38,496 nt of DNA from an uncultured Bdellovibrionales bacterium. Lineage in GTDB: Bacteria > Patescibacteriota > Minisyncoccia > Moranbacterales > UBA1568. The notes under the pieces were generated by a model, which saw only the letters and a program-made list of their open reading frames with translations, did no database searches and was not told the DNA's origin. The DNA lies in contig CAYHND010000001.1 of NCBI GenBank assembly GCA_964357915.1, positions 2,167-40,662 on the forward strand. The letters run 5' to 3'. Made by a program: the position numbers and the translations under genes. This document shows, in pieces, positions 6,953 to 35,912 of this stretch. Position 1 is the first letter of the stretch; each line of letters starts with the position of its first letter.

Positions 6953-8047
6953 CTAGCAAGAAGCTGCGCCAGAGAAGCACGGTGTTCCCTGGGGATTACT
7001 GACTGGCAATGAAGGTTTTTTGATAGGGCTGGTTGTACCAATACCACCAGTGGTCTGATTGACCCGAGTGTTGAGAATCCCGCCTGCTGGTCCCAAGATA
7101 CCTTCAGCATCAGAAATAGCTCTGTTGGTCTGAGAATTGATAGTCCCGATTTCTTGACGGATGGTACGTTGGATGGAACCAGTCCCCCGCTGAATCACCT
7201 GGGTGATGGTACGGTTGACGACAGAACTGACTACTCCTCCGAGAAACTCTGCCGGATTGTCAGCGCCTACGATAATTTTGTTACCAAGGGTAGTGACATC
7301 ATCTATCAAATTCTGTACCGTTCCAGCCGTGGTGATGACATTCCCAGCGGCATCAAGAATTGGCTTGGTGCCAGAACTCTGAGCAATCACTTCTTGCTCT
7401 TTCTTTTTGTCTTCCAGCGTTTTGTTGTAGAGTTGCTCAGCCGCTATAGAAATACCAATCGGATTATTGGCTGGACTCGCTACGAGACAATTGATGGCTC
7501 GAAAATCTCCTTCAGCAATGGCTACTCTAGGATCGCTGTTACCCGTGTTACATTCAGCAAAGTTGTTCTTAGGAATTTTCTCAGCATTGACGGTAGACTT
7601 CAACACTGCTTCTTTGAGATAGCTATTGTAGTTGCCAGTAACCTTACTCCCCTGCAAGGCATCTACATAGTTAGCGCCAGACTCTGTGCCACGAAGTGAC
7701 TGGGAAAGAAAATCCTTAGTAATCACTCTGTTGGCTTTCTCTTCAGGTATGGTAGTCAGAAACTGCTCGAAATTATAGATAACACTACTCTCTCCAAGAC
7801 TACCGTCAATGAGTTGAAAAACCTGATTATTCAAAAGTTGGACAGCTGCTACTTTCAATGTTCCCAGCAGAGCCCCCTCTATCTGACGCTTGATACTCTC
7901 AATAGTAGTCTGCATGATAGCGGCCGCTATCGACTCCCCCCAAGCTCCAGCATGGGCTTTGGGAGCAGAGGTCATAAAAAGACTTACCACAAAGAAGGTA
8001 ACGATTATCTTTTTATTTCTCATACTCATTACACGGAACTTTGTCAT
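6953..8047 (-). CDS. secreted protein, function unknown
   Basis: 364-aa ORF with a signal-peptide-like N-terminus (MSMRNKKIIVTFFVVSLFMTSAPKAHA). Alternative starts are at 8029 and 8023. No recognisable domain. Confidence 0.7.
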   Translation of the reverse strand: MTKFRVMSMRNKKIIVTFFVVSLFMTSAPKAHAGAWGESIAAAIMQTTIESIKRQIEGALLGTLKVAAVQLLNNQVFQLIDGSLGESSVIYNFEQFLTTIPEEKANRVITKDFLSQSLRGTESGANYVDALQGSKVTGNYNSYLKEAVLKSTVNAEKIPKNNFAECNTGNSDPRVAIAEGDFRAINCLVASPANNPIGISIAAEQLYNKTLEDKKKEQEVIAQSSGTKPILDAAGNVITTAGTVQNLIDDVTTLGNKIIVGADNPAEFLGGVVSSVVNRTITQVIQRGTGSIQRTIRQEIGTINSQTNRAISDAEGILGPAGGILNTRVNQTTGGIGTTSPIKKPSLPVSNPQGTPCFSGAASC

Positions 8048-8052
8048 AGTAT

Positions 8053-9030
8053 CTATAATTCGAGTGGGATATCTACAATCTCATATTTTTCCAGAGCTCC
8101 CTGAACTTCACTGACAAACTGAGTTGATACACCAAGAAGACCTTGCAAACGTGAAAGTACCGCTATCTGACCGAGTGGGTCATCACTGGCTGGATTGATT
8201 TCTTGTTTGAGTGAGACCGCATAGAGCCCCATCTTGAGCGCCTTGATATGAATATCAAGCATTGCCTCTGGTACTTCGAGTTTCTGACTCTCATCAAGAA
8301 TCTTTTGGCCACGCTCTGCGAGTGTATTAGTAAAATCTTTATTACCGCTTGCCAGTGTCAAAACAGCTTGATTAGAGAGGTTACCCAACATCCCGCCAAA
8401 TTCATCCTCGTTGCTAAACTGGGCTGGAGAGTTGTCTACTACGATGTAGGACATAACGGTGAGGTATTCCAAGACATCTTTACGCTCCTGTGCTATGCGT
8501 TCTTTTTCTTTCAAACTACTACTCGGCGCTTTCTTTATTTTGATACTTGCCACATCTACTTCTGGTAAAGTAATTTCAGTTGATTGACTGGAGAGAGCTT
8601 GCTCCACTGCTCCGTTGATCTGATCAAAGGTGATCTCTTTGTTCTCACTGTCTATAGTACTGAGGACTCCGGAAATTTGTTGAGAGACTTCGTTTGTAAG
8701 GTTCGGACCTGACTCATTTAACTCTGTGGTCGTTTTCCTTTTTTCTTCATCCCCTGCCACAATGCGATCCCCTGGTGCTGGCAGTAATGGATTGTAACCA
8801 CTCTCTACCTCTACTCCATCAGAGTAGCCATCGCCATCTGTATCGGCTTTGTCCGGATTAGTACCATAAAGTTTTTCTTCATCAAGAGAAAGATTATCCT
8901 GATCACTATCAACGAAGATGTTTTTTGCGCTGCTCGTTGATTCTGCATCTACTGCCAAAAAACTCACTAGAAAAAAAAGTCCTAAAAAAAGACTGAGTGT
9001 AAGTTTGTCACGAAAAAATAAATATCCCAT
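8053..9030 (-). CDS. secreted protein with a thrombospondin-type-3-like calcium-binding repeat
   Basis: Signal or anchor helix followed by DSDQDNLSLDEEKLYGTNPDKADTDGDGYSDGVEVESGYNPL (a DxDxDG-type acidic repeat). Confidence 0.7.
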   Translation of the reverse strand: MGYLFFRDKLTLSLFLGLFFLVSFLAVDAESTSSAKNIFVDSDQDNLSLDEEKLYGTNPDKADTDGDGYSDGVEVESGYNPLLPAPGDRIVAGDEEKRKTTTELNESGPNLTNEVSQQISGVLSTIDSENKEITFDQINGAVEQALSSQSTEITLPEVDVASIKIKKAPSSSLKEKERIAQERKDVLEYLTVMSYIVVDNSPAQFSNEDEFGGMLGNLSNQAVLTLASGNKDFTNTLAERGQKILDESQKLEVPEAMLDIHIKALKMGLYAVSLKQEINPASDDPLGQIAVLSRLQGLLGVSTQFVSEVQGALEKYEIVDIPLEL

Positions 9031-9053
9031 ATCAAGTTCTTTTTGTTTTTTCT

Positions 9054-9062
9054 AGTATATCA
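9054..9062 (-). promoter_or_regulatory. candidate extended -10 element (TGaTATACT on the minus strand) for the 9030-6953 genes
   Basis: The reverse complement of agtatatca is tgatatact, about 25 nt upstream of the ATG at 9030. Confidence 0.3.
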
Positions 9063-9268
9063 TTGAATAGCAAAAAATTGTACGCCAACCCTGCTAAGTA
9101 TCCCGTTTGTGATTACTATAAATTACTCGTAAGCAGTTTCATCAAAAAAACTTCTTTCAACCTTTATAGCTGTGGTATTACTACCTATCAAATCTCGTAT
9201 ATATTGAAGGATCTTTATATTTTTATATAAAATACTATACAATATATAATACAAAATGTCAATATATA

Positions 9269-10828
9269 CTATCCTCTCTCTTTAAGAGCTACCAAGATTC
9301 CTAGCCAAAAAATAGCTTGCCCCTGAGGAATAGTATAGAAAAAGTGATCTCCTAAAGCGAATACGATCAAAAAGAATACTACAGCCAGGTATTCTTTTGA
9401 ATGTTCCACGTGGAACATTTCCTTTTCATGATTCCCCTCTAATTGTTCCACGTGGAACATTGTGTCATTTTTCTTCTCTGTGATTACTTTTACTAGTAAG
9501 AAGATTATCAGAAACAACCCGATAGCTCCAAGCTCGTAGTAGGTTAAAAGAAAATAGTTATGAATAGGCTGGATACTCCAATCATTCACGCTGTATATTT
9601 GTGAATAGAGACGCGCACCATAAGAAGCGACTCCGTTACCGATCAACTGGAAATGACTCAGTTCTGAATATTCAACCAAGGAAAGTTCTCGCTCAGAAAA
9701 GCTTTTTAGTGAAGTAAGACCTCCTAGAGTCACTAAAAGGATTACTGCTAAAGCCATTAACCAATGTTCCACGTGGAACAATTGTATTTTCTTTTTTAGA
9801 GGAAATCTGGGAAATGTTCCACGTGAAACAATGAAAATACTCCCCAGCAGGGTCAAAAGTATGCCTGTCCTTGAAAAAGTAAGCATAAGAGCCATTACAA
9901 GTGTACCTATGACTAAATGTTCCACGTGGAACATTGTTTTTGATGAGTTTTTAGTTTCTACAGAAGATATTGTTCCACGTGGAACATTCTGGTGAATAAG
10001 GAGAACTAGTAAAGTAAGACCCAAAAAAGCGGCTAAAATATTGGGGTGAGGAAATAGCCCGTAGCCTCGAAGTATCTTCTCTCCGAATAGATTTATAGTA
10101 GCTATTCCCGGATTACCCACCCGCAAAAAGCTTTCTCCTAAGTACTTCAATCCAATAGAATGCTGTGTACTAACCTGTATAAAGACAACAAAAGCGTTAA
10201 ATAAAGCAAAGTAAGTCATTATCTTAATGATACTCCTATAAAGGACATCCTGTGTTCCACGTGGAACATTATTACTAGCTACTTGTTGTTCCACGTGGAA
10301 CATCCGTATTAGTTGTATCGAGATAAAAACACCTATTTCAGTCATAGTAAGAGCACTTCGTATAGCTAGGGGAATCTGATCTGCTTGAGTCACCGATAGC
10401 CATTGCCAAAGAATAAAGGCTAATATAAGCAATGTGATGCTTTTTAGAGTATGTTCCACGTGGAACATTCTTTGTTGGTCAGCATTTCCTGATTGTTCCA
10501 CGTGGAACATCTTTTTATATATTGACAATAATAGATACTCATGTTTTAATATTATATAGCCAAGCCACAAGAGAAACACTCCATCAAAAAGATAGACTGA
10601 TAGGTCTAGGTGCTCATTGAACAGACTCCCTTCGACCAACACATTCGGTATCAAGACTTTCTTGATATTCAATAAAAAAGCTACCAGAAGACTCATGGTA
10701 AGCCATTTCTCTACACTCTCTCCTTTTTTATCTTCACTGGTATTCATAGTCGTAGTGTACGTTTTTATAGTGAAGGGGACAAGAGATTGACTGAACAGGG
10801 GAATTAACAGATAATGAATGCGTTTCAA
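9269..10828 (-). CDS. Wzy_C / O-antigen-ligase-like polytopic membrane protein carrying ten in-frame parS-like palindromes
   Basis: 519-aa open frame with many hydrophobic helices. It has the motifs LTFSRTGILL and IHNYFLLTYYELGAIGL, shared with the two paralogs at 25296-27766. Alternative starts are at 10747 and 10696. Confidence 0.7.
   Translation of the reverse strand: MKRIHYLLIPLFSQSLVPFTIKTYTTTMNTSEDKKGESVEKWLTMSLLVAFLLNIKKVLIPNVLVEGSLFNEHLDLSVYLFDGVFLLWLGYIILKHEYLLLSIYKKMFHVEQSGNADQQRMFHVEHTLKSITLLILAFILWQWLSVTQADQIPLAIRSALTMTEIGVFISIQLIRMFHVEQQVASNNVPRGTQDVLYRSIIKIMTYFALFNAFVVFIQVSTQHSIGLKYLGESFLRVGNPGIATINLFGEKILRGYGLFPHPNILAAFLGLTLLVLLIHQNVPRGTISSVETKNSSKTMFHVEHLVIGTLVMALMLTFSRTGILLTLLGSIFIVSRGTFPRFPLKKKIQLFHVEHWLMALAVILLVTLGGLTSLKSFSERELSLVEYSELSHFQLIGNGVASYGARLYSQIYSVNDWSIQPIHNYFLLTYYELGAIGLFLIIFLLVKVITEKKNDTMFHVEQLEGNHEKEMFHVEHSKEYLAVVFFLIVFALGDHFFYTIPQGQAIFWLGILVALKERG
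9402..9417. promoter_or_regulatory. parS-like site 1 (TGTTCCACGTGGAACA)
   Basis: Perfect 16-bp palindrome, extended to the 18-bp palindrome ATGTTCCACGTGGAACAT at 9401-9418. Confidence 0.7.
9444..9459. promoter_or_regulatory. parS-like site 2 (TGTTCCACGTGGAACA)
   Basis: Perfect 16-bp palindrome, 42 bp centre-to-centre from site 1. Confidence 0.7.
9765..9780. promoter_or_regulatory. parS-like site 3 (TGTTCCACGTGGAACA)
   Basis: Perfect 16-bp palindrome. Confidence 0.7.
9815..9830. promoter_or_regulatory. parS site 4 (TGTTCCACGTGAAACA)
   Basis: Identical, as I recall it, to the Bacillus subtilis spo0J-internal parS and to the consensus TGTTNCACGTGAAACA. It lies 50 bp from site 3. Confidence 0.75.
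9918..9933. promoter_or_regulatory. parS-like site 5 (TGTTCCACGTGGAACA)
   Basis: Perfect palindrome; the 18-bp version spans 9917-9934. Confidence 0.7.
9971..9986. promoter_or_regulatory. parS-like site 6 (TGTTCCACGTGGAACA)
   Basis: Perfect palindrome, 53 bp from site 5. Confidence 0.7.
10253..10268. promoter_or_regulatory. parS-like site 7 (TGTTCCACGTGGAACA)
   Basis: Perfect palindrome. Confidence 0.7.
10287..10302. promoter_or_regulatory. parS-like site 8 (TGTTCCACGTGGAACA)
   Basis: Perfect palindrome, 34 bp from site 7. Confidence 0.7.
10452..10467. promoter_or_regulatory. parS-like site 9 (TGTTCCACGTGGAACA)
   Basis: Perfect palindrome; the 18-bp version spans 10451-10468. Confidence 0.7.
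10494..10509. promoter_or_regulatory. parS-like site 10 (TGTTCCACGTGGAACA)
   Basis: Perfect palindrome, 42 bp from site 9. Confidence 0.7.
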
Positions 10829-10923: not shown

Positions 10924-10996
10924 GGGCCCTTAGCTCATCTGGTAGAGCGCTCCCATGGCATGGGAGAGGTGAACGGTTCAAGTCCGTTAGGGTCCA
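10924..10996 (+). tRNA. tRNA-Ala (anticodon GGC)
   Basis: Cloverleaf with acceptor gggccct/agggtcc including the G3:U70 alanine identity pair, and anticodon loop atGGCat. Confidence 0.9.
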
Positions 10997-11049
10997 CACT
11001 TAAATTCGCTTGGATAAAGCTGTATAAACTAGTACAATCCCTTACACAA

Positions 11050-11121
11050 GCCTCCGTAGCTCAATGGATAGAGCTATCCCGTCCTAAGGGAGAGATCTGG
11101 GTTCGATTCCTGGTGGGGGCA
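11050..11121 (+). tRNA. tRNA-Arg (anticodon CCT)
   Basis: Cloverleaf with acceptor gcctccg/tgggggc, anticodon loop gtCCTaa and T-loop ttcgatt. There is one A:G mismatch at the top of the anticodon stem. Confidence 0.8.
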
Positions 11122-11196
11122 CTTTAAAATTCAAAAGGGGACTCTTTCTTTTTTTGGTCTACCATGCTAGACTAGTTCGTTACTAACCAAAAACAG

Positions 11197-11529
11197 ATGT
11201 CACTCCGTATTACTAAAGTTAATGATCTTTTGCGAGATCTTATTGCCGAGGCTCTTACTAAAGAGGTGAGTTTTAAGACTGGCGTTATCGCTACGGTGAC
11301 CAAGCTGCGCGTAACCAAAGATCTCCGTCATGCCTATTTTTCTGTCAGTATTTTTCCTGAAAGTGAGGTACATTACGTAGAGGTGACTCTCAAAAAAGAA
11401 ATTTCCAAGCTCGAACGCTTCGTCCATGACAAGCTCTACATGAAACCACTGCCTCGACTCCACTTTGAAGTTGATTCCACTGGACTCAATGCTGACGCCG
11501 TAGAAAAAATTCTTCTTTCTCTCGACTAA
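11197..11529 (+). CDS. rbfA: ribosome-binding factor A
   Basis: 110 aa. R..KVNDLLRDLIAEAL...VTKLRVTKDLRHAYFSVSIF is typical of RbfA. Confidence 0.85.
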   Translation: MSLRITKVNDLLRDLIAEALTKEVSFKTGVIATVTKLRVTKDLRHAYFSVSIFPESEVHYVEVTLKKEISKLERFVHDKLYMKPLPRLHFEVDSTGLNADAVEKILLSLD

Positions 11530-11530
11530 T

Positions 11531-13104: not shown

Positions 13105-13188
13105 TGGTACCGAGGGTGGGACTCGAACCCACACGGCTTGCGCCTGGGGATTTTAAGTCCCCTATGTCTACCATTCCATCACCCCGGC
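13105..13188 (-). tRNA. tRNA-Leu (anticodon TAA), long variable arm
   Basis: The reverse complement folds with anticodon loop ctTAAaa, a long variable arm and T-loop ttcgagt. A CCA appears to be encoded at the 3' end (13105-13107). Confidence 0.85.
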
Positions 13189-13223
13189 TTATTTGTATTC
13201 TATACTATCTTTAACTCTTTCTG

Positions 13224-13294
13224 AGGTCCGAAGCAGAATCGAACTGCTGTGCAAGGTTTTGCAGACCTCTGCCTAACCACTCGGCCATCGGACC
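13224..13294 (-). tRNA. tRNA-Cys (anticodon GCA)
   Basis: Reverse complement ggtccga...ctGCAaa...ttcgatt...tcggacc-t, with the U73 discriminator expected for Cys. Confidence 0.85.
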
Positions 13295-16057: not shown

Positions 16058-16071
16058 CATATTTTTCAATG

Positions 16072-16143
16072 AGCGGGTAAGGGGAATCGAACCCCTATCT
16101 CATCCTTGGCAAGGACGTGTAAGAGCCATTATACGATACCCGC
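16072..16143 (-). tRNA. tRNA-Gly (anticodon GCC)
   Basis: Reverse complement gcgggta..cgtcc-ttGCCaa-ggatg..agggg-ttcgatt-cccct-tacccgc-t. Confidence 0.9.
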
Positions 16144-16173
16144 GACTCTTCTTAGATTGTAACCTACTCTATG

Positions 16174-16247
16174 TGGGACTGGTTGGACTTGAACCAACGA
16201 CCAAGCGGTTATGAGCCGCGTGCTCTAACCAACTGAGCTACAGTCCC
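16174..16247 (-). tRNA. tRNA with CAT anticodon, probably tRNA-Ile2 (lysidine) rather than elongator Met
   Basis: The cloverleaf has a G1:C72 pair, so it is not an initiator. The stretch GCGGCTCATAACCGCTTGGTCGTTGGTTCAAGTCCAAC closely resembles E. coli ileX as I remember it. Confidence 0.85.
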
Positions 16248-16327
16248 ATTTTACCTTTATAACACCTGTATAACTGTCAGAGAAGGTACTTATACAGTAG
16301 TTCTCCACATACTATTTACCTTTTCTG

Positions 16328-16399
<72 letters not shown>

Positions 16400-16411
16400 A
16401 GAACTTCTTTG

Positions 16412-16485
16412 TGGGCAATAAAGGACTCGAACCTTTGACCCCCTCGGTGTAAACGAGGTGCTCTAACCAACTGAGCTAATTGCCC
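16412..16485 (-). tRNA. tRNA-Val (anticodon TAC)
   Basis: The reverse complement has acceptor gggcaat/attgccc and anticodon stem cctcg/cgagg with loop ttTACac. Confidence 0.9.
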
Positions 16486-16517
16486 ATACTTCCACAAATT
16501 TTCTCTTCTTTACACTG

Positions 16518-16602
16518 TGCCCAAGAGAGGACTCGAACCTCCAATCCCTTGCGAGAACATGCACCTCAAGCATGCGCGTATACCAAATTCCGCCACCTGG
16601 GC
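16518..16602 (-). tRNA. tRNA-Leu (anticodon GAG), long variable arm
   Basis: The reverse complement has anticodon stem catgc/gcatg with loop ttGAGgt, a long variable arm and T-loop ttcgagt. Confidence 0.85.
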
Positions 16603-24153: not shown

Positions 24154-25299
24154 ATGAGAAAACTCTTCCTCAGCTCACTCGCACTTTTTTTACTAGTCAT
24201 CATTTTTTTGTTGGCTTATAACTTCGCGTTTAAGAACAATGCTAGCGAGCCCAAGGTTACCTCTGATACCAAGGAAGAAGCCGTGACTCCAGAAGAAGGT
24301 TTTGGTAAAGAAAAAGAACCGGCCATAGCTACCGCCGTCACCAACCCTATTAACGAAAGTGTCCTTGGTGCCGTCACGGGTCCCAACAACAGTATTTTTT
24401 ACTACTCACAAGATGACCAGGCTTTCAAAAAAGCCACTCTCGAAGGTAAGGATAAGACCGTTCTCATGACCAATCTCCCCGGTAAACCCCTTCGCGTTAC
24501 CTGGTCTACTAAGCGCGATGCCGCCCTAGCACTCATTGAAGGAACGCCTACCCCTCGCTGGTATTCAATTAATTTTCCTACTAAATCTCTCACTCCGCTT
24601 AAAGCAGAAATTACTAAAGTAAGCTGGGGATCTCTCGGGGACAAAATCTACTACTTATTCAAAAATCCCTCTACTAAGGAATTTTCTCTCAATCGCTCTA
24701 ATGCTGACGGCAGCGACTGGAAGGAGATTGCGGTGGTAGGAAGTAGAGATCTTTTCTTAGGTACCATTCCCCAGTCCAACCGTATTTCCTTTTGGACGAG
24801 GCCAAATGGCTTAGAAGAAAGCTTTTTTGATGCTATTGATGCTGATGGGAACAATCGCACTAAGCTTTTCAATGGTCGTTATGGCGGTGATTACTTGTGG
24901 TCACCTAATGGAGAACGGGTGGTCGTAAGCGCCTCACTTACCAAGGGTGGCCCAGTCACTCTGGCTGTGATGAACAAAAATGGAGGAGAGCTACAGTCTC
25001 TCAATATTCCTACTCTCATCTCCAAAGTAGTGTGGTCCAGTGATAGCTCAAAGCTCTTCTATGCTCTTCCAGGCGGTTTAGGTGAAGCTCTGCTACCCAA
25101 TGATTACTTCGAGAAAAACCTCGCCTCACAGGACACTTTTTGGCAAATAGACCTCGGCACCGGCAAGAGTAGTCGCCTCCTCGAATTGGGTGATATTGGC
25201 CAATCTTTCGATAGTACTGATCTTTCCTTATCAGCTGATGAGCGTATCTTGTTCTTTACTGATAGAGTGACAAAGAAAATCTATCGTATTGAACTCTAG
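24154..25299 (+). CDS. membrane-anchored TolB-like / PD40 beta-propeller protein
   Basis: The start was chosen at MRKLFLSSLALFLLV (TM anchor), 5 nt after the previous stop. It has PD40-like repeats (WSPNGERVVVSA, VVWSSDSSKLFY, ILFFTD). Confidence 0.7.
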   Translation: MRKLFLSSLALFLLVIIFLLAYNFAFKNNASEPKVTSDTKEEAVTPEEGFGKEKEPAIATAVTNPINESVLGAVTGPNNSIFYYSQDDQAFKKATLEGKDKTVLMTNLPGKPLRVTWSTKRDAALALIEGTPTPRWYSINFPTKSLTPLKAEITKVSWGSLGDKIYYLFKNPSTKEFSLNRSNADGSDWKEIAVVGSRDLFLGTIPQSNRISFWTRPNGLEESFFDAIDADGNNRTKLFNGRYGGDYLWSPNGERVVVSASLTKGGPVTLAVMNKNGGELQSLNIPTLISKVVWSSDSSKLFYALPGGLGEALLPNDYFEKNLASQDTFWQIDLGTGKSSRLLELGDIGQSFDSTDLSLSADERILFFTDRVTKKIYRIEL

Positions 25300-26513
25300 T
25301 CTTCTTCTATATACCAGAGCGTAAGGAGCACTTGTAGCCAAAAAAGAAAGGCGAGATCATTTCTGAAGTAGGGTGTATCGATAAGCCCATAGCAAAGAAA
25401 TACGAACCAAAGAGCCAAAAGAAGTCCCCCTTCATTTTGGTTTTTTCTTTGTGTACTCTCAAATAATCTAACAACGAGCCTTCCTAGGATCAAAATAAAG
25501 CCAAGTAACCCTAGAAAGCCCGTCTGTAGCCATACGGCCAATAGAAGATTATGTGGCTGTGGAACAGCCCATTCAAGATAGGGGGTAAAGTGTGGCTGAT
25601 AGGCTAGGTACTCTCGCTGGAAGTTTCCCACACCAATTCCCAAAAACCAATGATCTTGTAGTATAGCCCAACTTGACTGCCAAATCATGACCCGCGAATC
25701 AAGTGATGAACGGCTATCCTCAAGAAACAGATCCTGCCACTTGCTACTATCGTGCTCCAGAAAAAGGAGAATGCCCAGTGCTAGTACTACTACTGCAACA
25801 AAGATGCCTAGTTTTTGCCGACTCTCACTCTCTGTTTTTTGTATCCATAAGAGCAAAAGACTTGCCAAAACTGCCAGAATGAGAGCTAGCCAGGTGTTGT
25901 ATGAGTGAGTGAGGTATAGCGGGATTAAGAGAAGGGTAGCTGTAGAGAGGAAAAACGCTCTTTTGCACCAGGTATTTGCTTGAAAAAGAAAGAAGATCGC
26001 TAAGAGAATGCCAGGGGCAACTAATAAGGCCAGAAAGTTGGGTGAATTATAAGGAAAAGCCAGTCGCCCATCGTAGGTGAGTATATGATGACTATATCCA
26101 TACAGAGCGGTGAAAGCTACGATGATGACTCCTACTAACCAAGACCCGTAGATAAGCATCCTCTCTTTATACTCCCCCCTCTGAAGGCTATAGAGTGTAA
26201 GGGCAAACACGAGGGGAAAGAGGAACCATGACTTGAGTTGACCGAGTGATGTGAGAGATACTGATTGACTTTGGTAGAGGATGGACATAATCGCTCCCGC
26301 CACAAACAAGATTCCCCCTAGGGCAATCCAGCGGTCAAAACCCTGCCATCTCACCCGTAAGCTCTCCTTGGTTACCTTCCACACACTCAACCCAAGGAAA
26401 ACTATGAAAAGGGCTTCCAAAAAGTACACTGGAAAACCAAAAACGGTCACTTTTTCAAGTGCTAAGACGAGGGATGCTGGCAAAAGAAAGAGTATGGCCT
26501 GTGAAAACATCAT
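25296..26513 (-). CDS. O-antigen ligase (Wzy_C) family membrane protein
   Basis: Polytopic, with the motif PHNLLLAVWLQTGFLGLLGF (HN-x2-L-x4-Q/E-x-G-x2-G-L). Confidence 0.75.
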   Translation of the reverse strand: MMFSQAILFLLPASLVLALEKVTVFGFPVYFLEALFIVFLGLSVWKVTKESLRVRWQGFDRWIALGGILFVAGAIMSILYQSQSVSLTSLGQLKSWFLFPLVFALTLYSLQRGEYKERMLIYGSWLVGVIIVAFTALYGYSHHILTYDGRLAFPYNSPNFLALLVAPGILLAIFFLFQANTWCKRAFFLSTATLLLIPLYLTHSYNTWLALILAVLASLLLLWIQKTESESRQKLGIFVAVVVLALGILLFLEHDSSKWQDLFLEDSRSSLDSRVMIWQSSWAILQDHWFLGIGVGNFQREYLAYQPHFTPYLEWAVPQPHNLLLAVWLQTGFLGLLGFILILGRLVVRLFESTQRKNQNEGGLLLALWFVFLCYGLIDTPYFRNDLAFLFWLQVLLTLWYIEED

Positions 26514-27766
26514 ACGGTTTTTGTTCTTGGAACAGCTTGGTACGCTACAAGAAGAAAAAGAGCAAACATGACGTGAAAAGAAAAGAGTGGTGCTTCAAAG
26601 AAGCCGTGAAAAAGAAAATAGATGGTACTGATACCACAAGCAAGCATGAGTGGGTCTTGACTATCTCGCCACCTTCTGAAACCTAACCACAAAGCGCTTC
26701 CAATAAAAGAGAGAAACAGGAGTAAGCCAATGAAACCCGTCTCAACTGCGATATCTAAATACAAATTATGAACATAGATAGGTTCTCTCATTGAGGCATC
26801 TGGTTTAACGAGAAGCGGATAGTTACCCACACCTACTCCTAAGAAGGGTCTTGTGAAACTATAGTGGACAGCTTCTTCGAGGAGACGGAGACGTTCGGTA
26901 CGAGAACCGTCTTCTGCTGACACACTTGAAAGTATTCTTGGGCCAACTGGTGTGGCAAAAAATACTCCTCCCAATAACAGCATCCCTACTAAAAAGTACT
27001 TACCGTACTGACGATAATCTTTAGCAAGCAGGATAGAAAGTAGAATTATACTCGTCAACAAAATTGCCGTGTAGGCTCCTCTGGAAAAGGTGAGCAGTAT
27101 TGCTACTCCTACCAGAACAAAGCTAAACTTGGCCACGAAAGTTCTTACTGTGTGCTGCCAGACATAGACTAGAGGAAGAGCAAGACCTAAATACAAACTC
27201 AGTGTGTGGGGATCAGGGAAAAAAGCCGTCACCCGTAAGTAGGTGGTTCCTAAAACATTTACCAAAAGGCTCGGGTATTCTTTGACCACAAGAGCGAAGT
27301 TATTACCCAGAAAAAATGGCAACACCTGGGTATTCCAAAGAGTCAGAATTTCATCAAGTGAAAGAAAAAACTGTAGACCGGCTTCTATACAAGCTACAAG
27401 AGCAATCAGTATCGCGCCATAAACAAAAGCCTGGGCGAGTTTAGCTAGTTTTTCTTGGCTCAGTGTCAGTAAGATTGGAAACAATAGACCTATATTCAGT
27501 AAAAAAACGACCTTACGCATACTCCAGGTAGGATCCAGAGCCCACAGTGGGGAGAGAGCACTCCAGAGAAGCCAAAAAAGAAAGAGTGCTAAAACACCGA
27601 GAGCTCGTATTTCTATCTGTCTTTGAAGTAGTGTTCGTACCAGCCAGCTGACTGATAGAAGTACCACTACTACTCGAGCTATGGGCAAGTCAATACTCGC
27701 AACAGGATTTAAGGCAAAGCTAAAAGGGAGGAGGAGGTAGAAATAATACAGAAGTCCCTCAAGCAT
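26510..27766 (-). CDS. O-antigen ligase (Wzy_C) family membrane protein
   Basis: Polytopic, with LLTFSRGAYTAILL and VHNLYLDIAVETGFIGLLLF. It shares an ATGA overlap with the downstream paralog. Confidence 0.8.
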   Translation of the reverse strand: MLEGLLYYFYLLLPFSFALNPVASIDLPIARVVVVLLSVSWLVRTLLQRQIEIRALGVLALFLFWLLWSALSPLWALDPTWSMRKVVFLLNIGLLFPILLTLSQEKLAKLAQAFVYGAILIALVACIEAGLQFFLSLDEILTLWNTQVLPFFLGNNFALVVKEYPSLLVNVLGTTYLRVTAFFPDPHTLSLYLGLALPLVYVWQHTVRTFVAKFSFVLVGVAILLTFSRGAYTAILLTSIILLSILLAKDYRQYGKYFLVGMLLLGGVFFATPVGPRILSSVSAEDGSRTERLRLLEEAVHYSFTRPFLGVGVGNYPLLVKPDASMREPIYVHNLYLDIAVETGFIGLLLFLSFIGSALWLGFRRWRDSQDPLMLACGISTIYFLFHGFFEAPLFSFHVMFALFLLVAYQAVPRTKTV

Positions 27767-30890: not shown

Positions 30891-31373
30891 CTAAATCTTT
30901 TGAGATTCCTTTTTGTTGGTAGTAAAAATGCGCATCCTTCGTTCTCTTCCTACTCCAAAGCTTTCTGTTTGGACACCCTCCATAGCAACCAGTGCTGCAT
31001 GAATGACCCTACGATCATGTGATTCCATAAACGGCAGAATCTGCTCTTCTCCAGTCGCCAAAACTACCTCCGCTCTTGCCTGAGCTTCATCAGTAAGTTT
31101 TTTTTCTTTTTCTTCCCAATAACCGTTTACGTCAAGATATATTTCCTTCAGAGTTTCTTCCTCAGATAGCTGTTTGCGTAAAAGCAGACGCACTATATGC
31201 TGGAGAGCTTGCAAATGAGCACCCGCCTGACCAATAAGTACACTTTGGTCAGTCTCAAGTCTAATTTGAATCTGGTAGCTCTGCTCAGTTTCTGCTACCT
31301 CTACCGTACCTTGAAAAGAAAGCTTCTCAAGAAGATTTCCTACTAGTTGTTTGATTTGTTCTGTTCTATTCAT
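30891..31373 (-). CDS. jag: Jag/KhpB-type RNA-binding protein (KH plus R3H)
   Basis: R3H motif (ESHDRRVIHAAL) and a conserved position downstream of yidC, with an ATGA overlap. Confidence 0.8.
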   Translation of the reverse strand: MNRTEQIKQLVGNLLEKLSFQGTVEVAETEQSYQIQIRLETDQSVLIGQAGAHLQALQHIVRLLLRKQLSEEETLKEIYLDVNGYWEEKEKKLTDEAQARAEVVLATGEEQILPFMESHDRRVIHAALVAMEGVQTESFGVGRERRMRIFTTNKKESQKI

Positions 31374-32122
31374 AACGCGGTAGTTTCTATCTTTCCATCA
31401 ACTTTTTTAGCAAAAAGAATTTTTTGTTGGATAAGCATAAAAAGAGTGGAGGTAAACCAATACAGAGAAAGAGCTGCTGGAAAAGTAAGTCCAATGAACA
31501 GGGTGATGGCTGGCCCCATGTAGAGCATCTGCTTGTTCATTATAGCGCTAAAGTCTGGTTCTTCACTCACACCCTCCTTTACCTCTTTGGTTGGTGTGTT
31601 GGCAAGCAGCATTTTTGTTTGGAAGTACTGAGCCGTGGCTGAAAGAATAGCAAAAACGATACTCGGCTTGGCGAGATCTACTATGTGTAAGAAGTAGTGA
31701 TTGATAATTCCCGGATTTGAAACAAAACTGTACAAATCAGTGACTTCTACTGAGAAATTGGCACCAGAAATATTGATAATGACTCGATAAATAGCGATAA
31801 GGACAATTATTTGAACAATCAGTGGCAGGCAGCCGGAAAACGGATTAGCCTTCTCTGTACGATAGAGCTCCAGAAGAGCCTTTGTTTGTTCTTCTTTCTT
31901 ATCCTTAAATTTCTTTTGTAGAGCCTTTATTTTCGGCTGTATCTCCTGCATTTTCTTCTGAGACTGGATCTGTTTGCGTGAAAGCGGAAACATGATGAAC
32001 TTGAGAAGAATGGTGACCAAAATAATGGCAATACCAAAATCTTGACCTGGCAAGGTATCATAAAAAAAGATGAGGGTATTGTAGATTGGACGATAGATGA
32101 TTTCGTGGAAAAGAGCCAGCAT
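31370..32122 (-). CDS. yidC: membrane protein insertase YidC (short form)
   Basis: FPLSRKQIQSQKKMQEIQPKIKALQKKFKDKKE...NPFSGCLPLIVQ are canonical YidC/Oxa1 motifs. Confidence 0.9.
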   Translation of the reverse strand: MLALFHEIIYRPIYNTLIFFYDTLPGQDFGIAIILVTILLKFIMFPLSRKQIQSQKKMQEIQPKIKALQKKFKDKKEEQTKALLELYRTEKANPFSGCLPLIVQIIVLIAIYRVIINISGANFSVEVTDLYSFVSNPGIINHYFLHIVDLAKPSIVFAILSATAQYFQTKMLLANTPTKEVKEGVSEEPDFSAIMNKQMLYMGPAITLFIGLTFPAALSLYWFTSTLFMLIQQKILFAKKVDGKIETTAL

Positions 32123-32128
32123 AGTATT

Positions 32129-32455
32129 TTAGGTGTTTTGTGGAGGTATTTTGTTAAATAAAGCCTCTATATCAGGCATTTCTAGCTTTCCAACTGGGTG
32201 GGTGGTAAAAAAGACTATATCCAGTCCTTTGAAATTATAGCGCTGATTGTAGAGTCCGACCATTCTGCGTCGTAGACGGTTACGCATAACGGCTGTTTTG
32301 GCGTGTTTCTTACTAAAAGAGAAGCCGAGTCGATCATTACCAAGCTCATTAGCTATCCACTTACAACCGTAGGGCTTAAAAAAAAGAGGCTTTCCGAAGC
32401 GAAAAACCTTTGCAAAATCCTCTTTTTTCTTTAACCTAAAGGCTTTTTTTAGCAT
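32129..32455 (-). CDS. rnpA: ribonuclease P protein component
   Basis: 108 aa, basic, with an RNR-like motif (AVMRNRLRRR). It lies between rpmH and yidC. Confidence 0.85.
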   Translation of the reverse strand: MLKKAFRLKKKEDFAKVFRFGKPLFFKPYGCKWIANELGNDRLGFSFSKKHAKTAVMRNRLRRRMVGLYNQRYNFKGLDIVFFTTHPVGKLEMPDIEALFNKIPPQNT

Positions 32456-32797: not shown

Positions 32798-34207
32798 ATG
32801 ACTAATGAAGAGCTGTGGAAAGCTGTTTTAGGCCAGATAGAGCTTTCACTTTCGAAGGCTAATTTCATTACCTGGTTCAAAAATACCTCTCTCCTGGAAA
32901 TTAATCAGGGGAAAGTTGTTATCGGTGTACCAAACGGCTTTGCTAAAGAATGGCTAGAAAACAAGTATAATAGTCATATTTTGAAGGCTTTGCGTTCTCT
33001 TGATCCTTCTATACAGCATATGCGTTGTATGATTGCTCTTCCGGATGTGAACAACAAAAGTCTTCCTCGCTCTATCGATGCAGCTATCCCCAGAGAAACG
33101 AATTCCTTTGTTCGTAAAAAGATTATTGAAAAGCCATCTTTCACAGCTAATAACATTTCTCTACAACAGGAAGTATTCCACGCGAGTAGTCTTAATTCTC
33201 GTTACACCTTTGAAAACTATATCGTAGCTGAAAACAACGAACTGGCTCATGCCGCGTGTCACGCTGTTTCTCAAAGTCTTGGAACACTCTACAACCCTCT
33301 CTTTATTTACGGCGGAGTTGGCCTTGGGAAAACACATCTTCTTCAGTCTATTGGTAATGAGGTTATGAAGAATCACCCAGAAAAACGCATTAAGTACATT
33401 ACTTCAGAGCGCTTTACTACCGAGCTTGTCGATTCTATCAAGAACCAGAAGATAGACCTCTTTAAGGAGTACTATCAACAAATGGATCTCCTTATTATTG
33501 ACGATGTCCAGTTTCTGTCAGGAAGGGAAAAGACTCAACATGAATTCTTCCATATTTTTAATGCTCTCTATCAAATCAACAAGCAGATTGTCATCTCAAG
33601 TGACCGGCCACCCAAAGCTATTGGCACACTTGAGGAGCGACTCCGTTCACGTTTTGAGGGTGGTATGATCACTGATATTAGTCAACCAAGCTTAGAGACC
33701 CGCATTGCTATATTAAGCTCCAAAGTATCTGAACGAGGTGTTTTTGTAGAGGAAGAGGCTCTTCGCTATATTGCTCAAAACATCAACCAGAATGTCCGCG
33801 AGCTTGAGGGTGCTCTTAACCGAGTTATTGCTTATTGTGATTTTCGTAAAATACCAGCCAATTTAAGTAATACTGAAAAGATTCTCAATGAGCTTCTTGA
33901 AAAAAATCGTAAAAATATCTCTGTAGAGAGTGTTTTTACAGCTATTTGTGACTACTACTCCGTTTCTCGTGAGGAACTTATCAAAAAGGGTCGCAAAAAG
34001 GAGATCTCACATCCTCGCCAAATCCTTATGTATCTTCTCCGCCAAGAACTCTCTACCCCTTTTTCTTCTATTGGAGATCTTTTGGGTGGAAGAGACCACA
34101 CTACTATTCTTCATGCGTATGAAAAGATCCAAAATCAAAAAGAGTCCTCTCGAAAAATAAAAGAGGAACTTTCTCAAATAAAAGAGCGCCTTTACTACGT
34201 TACCTAG
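32798..34207 (+). CDS. dnaA: chromosomal replication initiator protein DnaA
   Basis: Walker A GGVGLGKTHLL, LIIDDVQFL, an RFEGG sensor region and the C-terminal DNA-binding helix (GGRDHTTILHAYEKI). Confidence 0.95.
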   Translation: MTNEELWKAVLGQIELSLSKANFITWFKNTSLLEINQGKVVIGVPNGFAKEWLENKYNSHILKALRSLDPSIQHMRCMIALPDVNNKSLPRSIDAAIPRETNSFVRKKIIEKPSFTANNISLQQEVFHASSLNSRYTFENYIVAENNELAHAACHAVSQSLGTLYNPLFIYGGVGLGKTHLLQSIGNEVMKNHPEKRIKYITSERFTTELVDSIKNQKIDLFKEYYQQMDLLIIDDVQFLSGREKTQHEFFHIFNALYQINKQIVISSDRPPKAIGTLEERLRSRFEGGMITDISQPSLETRIAILSSKVSERGVFVEEEALRYIAQNINQNVRELEGALNRVIAYCDFRKIPANLSNTEKILNELLEKNRKNISVESVFTAICDYYSVSREELIKKGRKKEISHPRQILMYLLRQELSTPFSSIGDLLGGRDHTTILHAYEKIQNQKESSRKIKEELSQIKERLYYVT

Positions 34208-34459
34208 TGTATATGTTTGTATAAGCTGGTTTTAGACCTGTATACCTCGTGGTAAAAATGTAGATAAAAAACTAAAAACAATACCCTTCATCATCCCCAT
34301 CCTTCTAAATACCTAAATAATAAAAAGTATCCCTATTTAAATAACTCTTCTGATAAACTTTTTAGCCCACTAACTAAACCTTTATAGAAGTTATCCAGTT
34401 ATACAGACTACTAATAAATAATAACTATTTTTCTAAATAATTTAATTAATACTTCTTAT
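34208..34459. other. candidate oriC segment (dnaA-dnaN intergenic) with tandem DnaA-box-like sites and an AT-rich unwinding stretch
   Basis: TTATCCAgt (34391-34399) abuts TTATaCAgA (34400-34408). It is followed by ctactaataaataataactatttttctaaataatttaattaat, which is almost pure A/T. Confidence 0.5.
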
Positions 34460-35602
34460 ATGAAAATCATTTGTACTCAAGAAAACCTCCTCCAAGCACT
34501 AAGTGCTCTTGATAGAGTAGTGGGGAAACAAAGTTCACTCCCAATTCTTAGTAACTTCCTCTTTGAAACAGAGAAGGGTCGCCTTAAAATATCTGCTACC
34601 AACCTCGAAATAGGTATTTTGGTTTATGTAGGAGCAAAAATAGAAAAAGAGGGAAAGATAGCAGTACCAGCTCGTATACTCTCTCAATTTGTCCAAAATT
34701 TGCCGAGTGGTGAGGTTTTAGAGCTAGAAGTAAAGGATAGACACCTTTCTATTAAAGGAGGGTCCTCAGAGATGAAAATTAAAGTGCTTGATGGGAAAGA
34801 TTTTCCAATAATTCCCCACTACAAAAAGGAATATCCCCTTACATTACCAGCTCAGAGTATTAAGCGAGCTCTTGGAAGACTTTTGTTTTGTGTGAGTACG
34901 AATGAGTCGAGAATTGAACTGACAGGTGTTCAGCTTCTTTTTGAGGAAAACCAACTCTCTTTGGCTGCGACGGATAGTTTTCGTTTAGCAGAAGAGATTA
35001 TTCCCTACACAAAAGCTTTGGTAAACAACGAACAATACACCTCACTTATTATTCCCACCCAAACCCTACAGGAAATAAGTCGTTCGCTTGGGGCTGAGGT
35101 TGACGAGGTAAAGATGGCTCTTGAGGAAAACCAACTCTTTTTTGAGTTAGGGAATATTCAAATTGTGTCGCGGGTTATCAATGGAAAATTCCCAGACTAC
35201 AAACAAATTATCCCCCAAGATCTCAAAACAAAAGTAGTTCTTGAAAGAGATGCCCTTATTCGCTCACTCAAAATAGCGAGCACACTCTCTTCTTATACAG
35301 CCGGAGAGATAGCGTTGGTACTTAACCCGAGTGATAAAAGTTGTACAGTGATCGCTCGCTCACAGGAAGTGGGGGAAAACCAGAGTGTTCTAGAGGGAGA
35401 GTTTCTAGCTGGTACAGAACCACTTACACTTGTCTTCAACCCACGCTACCTTATTGAGGGGTTAGGTGCTTTTACAGAAAAGAAAGTTCTTTTTTCAGCC
35501 AATACCCCATCAAGTCCAACAACATTTCAGGCTATTTCTACAGAAGGTCAGGAGACAGACTATGTCTACGTTATGATGCCTATCCGTAAAGAATATGCGT
35601 AA
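34460..35602 (+). CDS. dnaN: DNA polymerase III beta sliding clamp
   Basis: 380 aa with a typical DnaN N-terminus (MKIICTQENLLQAL...VVGKQSSLPILSNFLFE) and ATDSFRLA. Confidence 0.9.
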   Translation: MKIICTQENLLQALSALDRVVGKQSSLPILSNFLFETEKGRLKISATNLEIGILVYVGAKIEKEGKIAVPARILSQFVQNLPSGEVLELEVKDRHLSIKGGSSEMKIKVLDGKDFPIIPHYKKEYPLTLPAQSIKRALGRLLFCVSTNESRIELTGVQLLFEENQLSLAATDSFRLAEEIIPYTKALVNNEQYTSLIIPTQTLQEISRSLGAEVDEVKMALEENQLFFELGNIQIVSRVINGKFPDYKQIIPQDLKTKVVLERDALIRSLKIASTLSSYTAGEIALVLNPSDKSCTVIARSQEVGENQSVLEGEFLAGTEPLTLVFNPRYLIEGLGAFTEKKVLFSANTPSSPTTFQAISTEGQETDYVYVMMPIRKEYA

Positions 35603-35912
35603 TATAAAGGATCTTTTTCAAGAGAAAAAGAAGTTAGTAGCCAAAAAAATAGAACCGACTCTTGATGAGAAAACCATCTTCTTTGTTTTTAAGAGAGTTT
35701 TTCGTGAGCTGTATGGACCAAAGGGTGAAGAGAGTGTAGAGCCCTTACGTGTCTACGAGAAAAAGCTCTATATCAAACCAAAAACTTCATTGTGGGCTAA
35801 TGAAATACTCCTCCATAAAGAGAAATTGGTACAGAAAACAAATCAAACTCTTGAGGGGGAATACCTCTCTGATATTACTTTGACGCAACGTTCATTTGAG
35901 AACACCAAGTAA
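35595..35912 (+). CDS. DUF721 / DciA-like small protein
   Basis: 105 aa, overlapping the dnaN stop by 8 nt. The pattern ...LRVYEKKLYIKPKTSLWANEILLHKEKLVQKTNQTLG resembles the DUF721 core (L.V.V.S..WA.EL......L...N). The assignment is from memory. Confidence 0.55.
   Translation: MRNIKDLFQEKKKLVAKKIEPTLDEKTIFFVFKRVFRELYGPKGEESVEPLRVYEKKLYIKPKTSLWANEILLHKEKLVQKTNQTLEGEYLSDITLTQRSFENTK

Follow-up and report, generated by a model that had tools for sequence, protein, structure and literature searches.

A candidate parS centromere array in the loops of a WaaL-like membrane-protein gene of Patescibacteria

How does one bacterial gene come to carry the same short palindrome ten times and still read as a complete membrane protein? 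We address this question in a 38,496-bp stretch of DNA (the window; contig CAYHND010000001.1 of assembly GCA_964357915.1), the host of which would be a member of the Patescibacteria, or candidate phyla radiation (CPR), related to Moranbacteria. The palindromes match parS, the chromosomal centromere site, and they lie inside a gene whose product resembles the O-antigen ligase WaaL. The explanation that we consider likely is an ancient parS centromere array close to the replication origin; it would occupy the cytoplasmic loops of a WaaL-like gene that remains functional, and it is shared by a large CPR clade.

Ten parS sites in one open reading frame

A search of the window allowing up to three mismatches recovers ten matches to the 16-bp inverted repeat TGTTCCACGTGGAACA, all within 9402-10509, and none elsewhere in the 38.5 kb. 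The sites start at 9402, 9444, 9765, 9815, 9918, 9971, 10253, 10287, 10452 and 10494; nine are perfect, and the remaining one, at 9815-9830, carries one mismatch (TGTTCCACGTGAAACA on the plus strand). Shuffled versions of the window average 0.14 matches, and in 100 shuffles the count never reached ten. The repeat is letter for letter the parS given for Pseudomonas putida and P. aeruginosa (review PMC7022226). All ten sites fit the canonical chromosomal parS consensus TGTTNCACGTGNAACA, and the 16-mer agrees with pan-bacterial parS at all 14 specified positions, including the usual variation at N5 and N12. By their sequence, the palindromes are canonical chromosomal parS, as the first-pass annotation of this DNA had supposed in calling them centromere-type.

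Start-to-start distances along the array are 42, 321, 50, 103, 53, 282, 34, 165 and 42 bp, and the sites form five pairs within a single open frame. The mismatch search recovered the within-pair spacings noted at first pass (42, 50, 53, 34 and 42 bp); the accompanying estimate that pairs lie 270-320 bp apart holds for two of the four gaps (321, 103, 282 and 165 bp) and fails for the other two. Seven sites are translated as [M/L]FHVE[H/Q] and three as VPRGT or VSRGT. The palindrome proved free of stop codons in every frame, as had been claimed. The A12 variant TGTTNCACGTGAAACA would place a TGA in the third frame, so that G at position 12 is needed for that frame to stay open.

The frame that hosts the sites is open from 9269 to 10828 on the minus strand, in agreement with the first-pass description, and can be read from a TTG at 10828. 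The coding sequence more likely spans 9269-10747, because distant orthologues and a database protein identical to the host protein over 492 aa (P0001, 100% identity) begin at the ATG at 10747. The gene and the five paired units within it are as follows.

9269..10747, minus strand: coding sequence of a WaaL/O-antigen-ligase-like membrane protein with 12 transmembrane helices, 492 aa (open reading frame, homologues, AlphaFold2 model and PDB match)
10451..10510, minus strand: loop 1 unit, aa 80-99, MFHVEQSGNADQQRMFHVEH; parS at 10452-10467 and 10494-10509
10253..10303, minus strand: loop 2 unit, aa 149-165, MFHVEQQVASNNVPRGT; parS at 10253-10268 and 10287-10302, in two different frames
9917..9988, minus strand: loop 3 unit, aa 254-277, NVPRGTISSVETKNSSKTMFHVEH; parS at 9918-9933 and 9971-9986
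9764..9832, minus strand: loop 4 unit, aa 307-328, IVSRGTFPRFPLKKKIQLFHVEH; parS at 9765-9780 and 9815-9830 (the latter the one-mismatch variant)
9401..9460, minus strand: loop 5 unit, aa 430-449, MFHVEQLEGNHEKEMFHVEH; parS at 9402-9417 and 9444-9459

Homology and fold both assign the host protein to the WaaL family. We found 357 homologues at E≤1e-3, most of them with the Pfam family PF04932 (O-antigen ligase, Wzy_C); those carrying organism names come from Moranbacteria, Parcubacteria and the Patescibacteria group, and the closest metagenomic match (98% identity) comes from Hainich aquifer groundwater. An AlphaFold2 model built from 107 sequences has a mean predicted local distance difference test score (pLDDT) of 82.6 and a predicted template modelling score (pTM) of 0.88, with twelve long helices in which pLDDT exceeds 90. 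In a Foldseek comparison of the model with the PDB, the sole significant match is WaaL (7TPG_B; E=3.1e-4, probability 1.00, target-normalised TM-score 0.56). PF04932 itself gives no match to the full-length protein and reaches 13.7 bits against a gathering cut-off of 31.7 when the five units are removed, so that the initial label of a Wzy_C-like protein stands by homology and fold and falls short by Pfam threshold. The full open reading frame also gave a sub-threshold Pfam match to DUF4079, which we dismissed because homologues and fold point to WaaL.

Hydropathy places the units between hydrophobic helices, and the only low-pLDDT blocks of the AlphaFold2 model are the same five units, each flanked by confident helices; the initial reading of the palindromes as translated loop segments of an intact membrane-protein gene is borne out on both counts. 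Each loop has a pair of 16-bp parS sites, placed close to the two helix ends, and the loops are predicted to be disordered. The units are 20, 17, 24, 22 and 20 aa long, as against medians of 10, 10, 12, 20 and 8 aa at the opposite positions in parS-free relatives, which agrees with the earlier suspicion of added sequence. Lysine and arginine make up 21 of 140 residues in the putative cytoplasmic segments and 7 of 114 in the periplasmic ones. WaaL has 12 transmembrane helices and both termini in the cytoplasm, and helix counting, the positive-inside rule and this topology together suggest that the units correspond one to one with the protein's five cytoplasmic loops, with the N-terminus inside the cell. 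Across 106 aligned homologues, 755 of 940 translated parS motifs fall in these five putatively cytoplasmic loops; the remainder lie at the helix ends bordering loops 3 and 4, with just one in a periplasmic loop.

Conservation of the sites and selection on DNA and protein

We traced orthologues with proteins at 72, 43, 37, 31, 28 and 27% identity to their contigs, with DNA available for five of the six and the gene list alone for the sixth. On one side of the gene lies rbfA-DHH-UDG or L19-RluD, and on the other a TSP3-repeat gene followed farther on by FtsH-TilS-Gmk-S1-metallo-beta-lactamase-GyrA. Because all share this neighbourhood, we regard them as positional orthologues. The five loci with DNA carry 5-17 parS sites each, all within the host gene. 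In the syntenic orthologues (26-72% identity in the alignments), as in the 106 aligned homologues, the sites occupy homologous loops, which argues that they are ancient and not the lineage-specific insertions envisaged at first pass.

A comparison of substitution patterns in palindromes and flanking codons, proposed with the first-pass annotation, separates selection on the DNA from selection on the peptide. We scored codon identity at aligned positions with identical amino acids, inside and outside parS, using Fisher's test. Identity inside and outside the sites is 93% and 60% against the first orthologue locus (L001; p 3e-6), 94% and 42% against L002 (p 3e-9), 79% and 40% against L003 (p 4e-4), and 91% and 33% against L004 (p 5e-7). 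Among the orthologues parS is found in all three reading frames, and the same loop uses different frames in different lineages: loop 1, for example, reads CSTWN in L002 where others read MFHVEH. One lineage carries the half-site variant TGTTTCACGTGAAACA, which yields the peptides FHVKH and VSRET. Synonymous conservation, frame changes between lineages and the TGTTTCACGTGAAACA variant together indicate, at the level of sequence comparison, that selection keeps the DNA palindrome itself and not the peptides.

The spacers between paired sites tell a different part of the history. The five window spacers (18-37 bp) are unrelated to one another, and since they share no common unit, recent copying of one element is ruled out for the window. 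Close orthologues hold counterparts of four of the five window units at the same positions; at loop 1 they have a single parS, the second having been gained in the window lineage. In other lineages units have clearly been copied between loops of the same gene: a Parcubacteria locus (L102) has a three-site cassette in three loops, at ~80-85% identity over 126 bp, and a Moraniibacteriota orthologue (L005) has an identical 18-bp spacer in two loops. By these comparisons, the loops have grown by local gain and copying of sites, as an evolving array of cis-elements within one gene.

Some orthologue sites are interrupted at the very centre of the palindrome (CAC^GTG); this is seen in L001, in L004 and in the homologue P0121. 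L001 (twice, at locus coordinates ~350-410 and 905-965) and P0121 carry a 21-bp GC-rich, partly palindromic insert, CGTGCCTACCGGCAGGCAGGC, which is translated as RAYRQAG and, where it lies in the opposite orientation, as ACLPVGK. In L004, at 11430-11530, the insert is itself a complete second parS with extended arms, nested within the first. The split sites look like the outcome of centre-targeted insertion or hairpin-driven expansion.

The units also bear on annotation. In L005 (9651-10001) the deposited gene call begins ~700 bp too late; the frame is open upstream of the deposited start and holds six more parS, giving 17 in one open reading frame. Loops rich in parS seem to lead gene callers astray and to pull Pfam scores down.

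The protein is also under constraint outside the sites. Outside parS codons, the ratio of nonsynonymous to synonymous substitution rates (dN/dS) is 0.18-0.26 against L001 and 0.21 against L002, values that are approximate given the large dS (1.2-2.8); the LWL85 method gave no value for a more distant pair. The frame is intact in more than 100 homologues. R227, H234, R353 and H396, candidates for the conserved catalytic Arg/His residues of the WaaL family, are invariant in 107 sequences and lie in or beside putative periplasmic loops; the motifs FPHPN, W..QP.HN and DH, in loops likewise assigned to the periplasm, are invariant or nearly so across the same 107 sequences. Low dN/dS together with the invariant residues and motifs indicates purifying selection, and by these comparative measures the host is a functional WaaL-like gene showing no decay. 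Two Wzy_C paralogues in the window, named at first pass for comparison, serve as internal controls; both lack the sites and have shorter loops.

25296..27766, minus strand: tandem Wzy_C paralogues (25296-26513 and 26510-27766), no parS

One gene family near the replication origin

Removing the five units from the query leaves the parS-bearing orthologues as the top matches; below them come more distant PF04932 proteins, 27 of 30 of which have no parS motif. A metagenome scan seeded by three peptide patterns unrelated to parS returned 80 loci, 50 of which carry parS inside the gene. Across the 80 loci, the gene regions (177 kb) contain 275 perfect parS and the flanks (639 kb) contain none.

A separate scan for paired parS, using one genome per species, gave at least 120 loci. 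Close pairs are common among the matches listed, which include Streptomyces, Collinsella, Bacteroidota and Clostridia among other taxa, so that a pair is by itself unremarkable. Density is: of the matches listed, 112 of 120 8-kb stretches hold 2-3 sites and three hold ten. Two of those three, from Moraniibacteriota (L090) and Parcubacteria (L102), are the only CPR loci among the at least 120 matches listed, and in both all ten parS fall in the same WaaL-like gene family, in all three frames. The third, like a relative of it, has its sites in and around dnaX.

The array, at 9.4-10.5 kb, is origin-proximal, because rnpA-yidC-jag and dnaA-dnaN-dciA lie at 30.9-35.9 kb. The origin region is placed by this gene content, and ~22 kb is accordingly the distance to the dnaA region.

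32798..35912, plus strand: dnaA-dnaN-dciA, marking the replication-origin region, ~22 kb from the parS array
30891-32455, minus strand: rnpA-yidC-jag, preceding dnaA-dnaN-dciA

The DciA-family gene (PF05258) at 35595-35912 on the plus strand directly follows dnaN, consistent with an origin that uses a DciA-type helicase loader. Otherwise the window has the gene content usual for a small Patescibacteria/CPR genome, with ten tRNA genes, ftsH, tilS, rbfA, a ribonucleotide reductase and a class-A penicillin-binding protein. The ten tRNA genes in 38 kb include a six-gene cluster, with locations at 10924-11122, 13105-13294 and 16071-16602. Genes for tRNA-Ala and tRNA-Arg adjoin the parS host gene on its upstream side, and the same tRNA-like sequence precedes the L005 orthologue. 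Immediately downstream, at 6953-9030 on the minus strand, are two genes, one for a protein of 325 aa that has a bacterial TSP3 repeat and one for a protein of 364 aa without a family; both follow the host gene in all four closer orthologue loci (L001-L003 and L005), and the three genes may form one operon. Positions 9001-10000 are the lowest-G+C kilobase of the window (0.349, against ~0.44 overall) despite holding six GC-rich palindromes, the host gene being markedly AT-rich outside the sites.

Several points weigh against a clade-wide centromere array in cytoplasmic loops. No ParB or ParA gene was found in the 38.5-kb window, nor within ~10 kb of the array in 87 related CPR loci (~0.9 Mb). 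The searches used phmmer with B. subtilis Spo0J and Soj sequences and a hidden Markov model built from 45 ParB open reading frames; as a positive control, the same searches found 49 ParB and 50 ParA open reading frames in 120 non-CPR loci with paired parS. Thirty of the 80 related metagenome loci lack parS, and these may be paralogues. The first homologue search chose candidates by shared five-residue words and was biased to parS-bearing proteins, a bias that the stripped-query and peptide-pattern controls correct only partly. The orientation of the loops, finally, depends on helix counting, the positive-inside rule and the topology of WaaL.

Competing explanations and a model for the array

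The first-pass annotation had offered two interpretations of its own: the units are tolerated insertions analogous to Rickettsia palindromic elements, or the gene is a decaying scaffold co-opted for the centromere. If the units were selfish mobile elements inserting in frame, with the likeness to parS incidental or secondary, one could account for loops longer than in parS-free relatives, for the recurring multi-site cassettes with conserved spacers in L102 and L005, and for small inserts and nested parS exactly at palindrome centres in L001, P0121 and L004. Such elements would have to spare everything else, however: beyond the gene itself, neither the window nor the five orthologue loci contain a copy, the 639 kb of flanks of the 80 loci have none against 275 inside the gene, and even the cassette-like copies of L102 and L005 stay within the gene. 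The window spacers are mutually unrelated and yield no full-length element consensus, homologous loops are occupied in orthologues at 26-72% identity and in 106 homologues, and the sequence is exactly canonical parS in an array near dnaA. We therefore regard mobile insertion as improbable, and the analogy to Rickettsia elements does not hold. The decaying scaffold fares worse. That the Wzy_C threshold is missed (no match; 13.7 against 31.7 bits after stripping) and that the window has two intact paralogues which could take over the function would suit a pseudogene kept as a centromere scaffold, but dN/dS of 0.18-0.26 (L001) and 0.21 (L002) outside parS codons, a frame intact in more than 100 homologues, invariant W..QP.HN, DH and FPHPN motifs and a confident 12-helix model (pTM 0.88) make decay very improbable.

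Two further explanations deny that the palindromes act as a centromere or that they matter as DNA. A protein other than ParB might read them, as regulator and operator of an envelope-glycan gene, or they might act as mRNA hairpins tuning translation and membrane insertion. The missing ParB and ParA genes within ~10 kb of the array (~0.9 Mb of CPR DNA) fit this idea, as do the common placement of paired parS beside parAB in other phyla and the strict tie of the sites to one gene family. It is nevertheless unlikely, since all 14 specified positions match pan-bacterial parS, N5/N12 variation included, the array is origin-proximal, and a gene-specific operator is not expected 10-17 times within a coding region in three frames; in other bacteria, moreover, ParB genes often lie far from some of their parS sites. 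Least probable of all, and hardly credible, is that MFHVEH and NVPRGT are functional peptide repeats with DNA palindromy as a by-product. The motifs do recur in all the putative cytoplasmic loops, and the family consensus has them at majority level, yet which of FHVEH, VPRGT and CSTWN, three frames of the same DNA, fills a given loop differs between lineages, synonymous positions are conserved within the motif and not beyond it, and the loops are predicted to be disordered. The first-pass observation is thus confirmed and its interpretation partly supported.

Known systems help to place a conserved parS array of this kind. Chromosomal ParABS centromeres have parS arrays near oriC in Pseudomonas, Bacillus, Caulobacter and Myxococcus (22 sites). 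The present array shares with them the identical 16-bp palindrome, the clustering of multiple sites near the origin and the close pairs; it differs in that all sites, 10 here and as many as 17 in L005, are packed into ~1.1 kb of a single coding sequence and confined to putative cytoplasmic-loop codons of one conserved gene, with no parAB nearby. Lin and Grossman are reported to have described in 1998 one B. subtilis parS inside spo0J, translated as NVPRET, a translated intragenic site in the same frame as NVPRGT here; it is a single site in the linker of a soluble protein, whereas here an array spans every putative cytoplasmic loop, clade-wide. The host protein resembles WaaL (PF04932; cryo-EM structure 7TPG) in its 12-helix fold, its PF04932 homologues and its conserved Arg/His motifs in probable periplasmic loops; unlike WaaL, it has cytoplasmic loops about twice as long that encode predicted DNA-binding sites, it falls below the Pfam threshold, and it belongs to a CPR bacterium without an outer membrane. 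Rickettsia palindromic elements, ~100-150 bp long and dispersed in many unrelated genes, are likewise palindromic DNA translated as extra, tolerated segments of otherwise functional proteins; here, by contrast, 16-bp sites with unrelated spacers sit in one gene at conserved positions and are identical to a known protein-binding site.

Translated intragenic parS is not unique to this gene. Two AT-rich metagenome-assembled genomes labelled 'Bacilli' (L095, 5922-7979) and 'Muribaculaceae' (L043, 443-2293) carry 10 and 7 parS around dnaX, recognised by its N-terminal motif. There several parS are translated (NVSRGT, VPRET, VSRET) in the low-complexity C-terminal linker of DnaX, an essential protein, with 3 and 2 sites within the open reading frame in the parts seen. 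Like the gene studied here, the DnaX linker would hide a centromere in a tolerant coding segment; it differs in being another gene, with fewer in-frame sites and a soluble linker. A contig labelled Nitrosopumilus, an archaeon (L115, 3246-5375), carries four bacterial-type parS and a ParB open reading frame (E=5e-61 to Spo0J) and is probably a mis-binned bacterial contig. Our searches of the literature gave no description of a whole centromere array restricted to the loops of a single conserved gene for a membrane protein.

Exact site identity, selection on the palindrome and position near the origin lead us to infer ParB binding and centromere function for the array. In the model that we prefer, ParB, presumably canonical and CTP-dependent, would load at the ten sites, 34-53 bp apart within pairs, and would then spread to form a partition and SMC-loading complex on the origin-proximal region, with SMC recruitment probable. 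The host gene would stay expressed despite this complex. Expression through a nucleoprotein complex had been presented at first pass as a difficulty; it loses its force with the report that loss of B. subtilis Spo0J leaves expression of parS-adjacent genes unchanged (PMC7022226). The unstructured loops, about twice as long as in parS-free relatives, would tolerate FHVEH/Q, VPRGT or CSTWN, and cytoplasmic loops of a WaaL-type enzyme, being free of catalytic residues, could accept any of the three stop-free readings. The DNA palindrome would thereby be kept for the protein that reads parS and the enzyme by ordinary purifying selection. The arrangement would have arisen in an ancestor of a large CPR clade and been remodelled since, as sites were gained, lost and copied both inside a loop and from one loop to another. 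The loops were probably used because they are tolerant, in a gene-dense genome, and historical contingency together with this tolerance is the simplest answer to why this gene was chosen; coupling through co-translational membrane insertion is a conceivable alternative answer.

A functional coupling between centromere and membrane gene is a rather doubtful addition, taken jointly over its variants. Co-translational insertion of the nascent 12-helix product might tether ParB-parS, and hence the origin region, to the membrane (transertion); conversely, ParB loading might tie the expression of an envelope glycan ligase to the replication cycle; or the clade may lack canonical ParB and have another protein read the palindrome. 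Were the tether real, it would provide a membrane anchor for the origin in tiny cells that show no parAB beside the array.

On the likelier explanation of a centromere array in tolerant loops, the locus would be a case of dual coding in which a complete, high-density centromere of 10-17 perfect protein-binding sites overlies a gene under purifying selection. It would show how gene-dense genomes of ~1 Mb find room for essential cis-elements and how much sequence a polytopic membrane protein can take up in its cytoplasmic loops. For annotation, the extra loop segments lower Pfam scores and make gene callers truncate the open reading frame, as in L005, and the peptides FHVEH, VPRGT and CSTWN should be flagged as not being protein motifs. 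In uncultivated Patescibacteria the host gene, being easy to recognise, may serve to mark the centromere and origin region, aiding the orientation and checking of metagenome assemblies. With this system one could also test directly whether ParB loading interferes or cooperates with transcription of the same DNA or with membrane insertion of its product.

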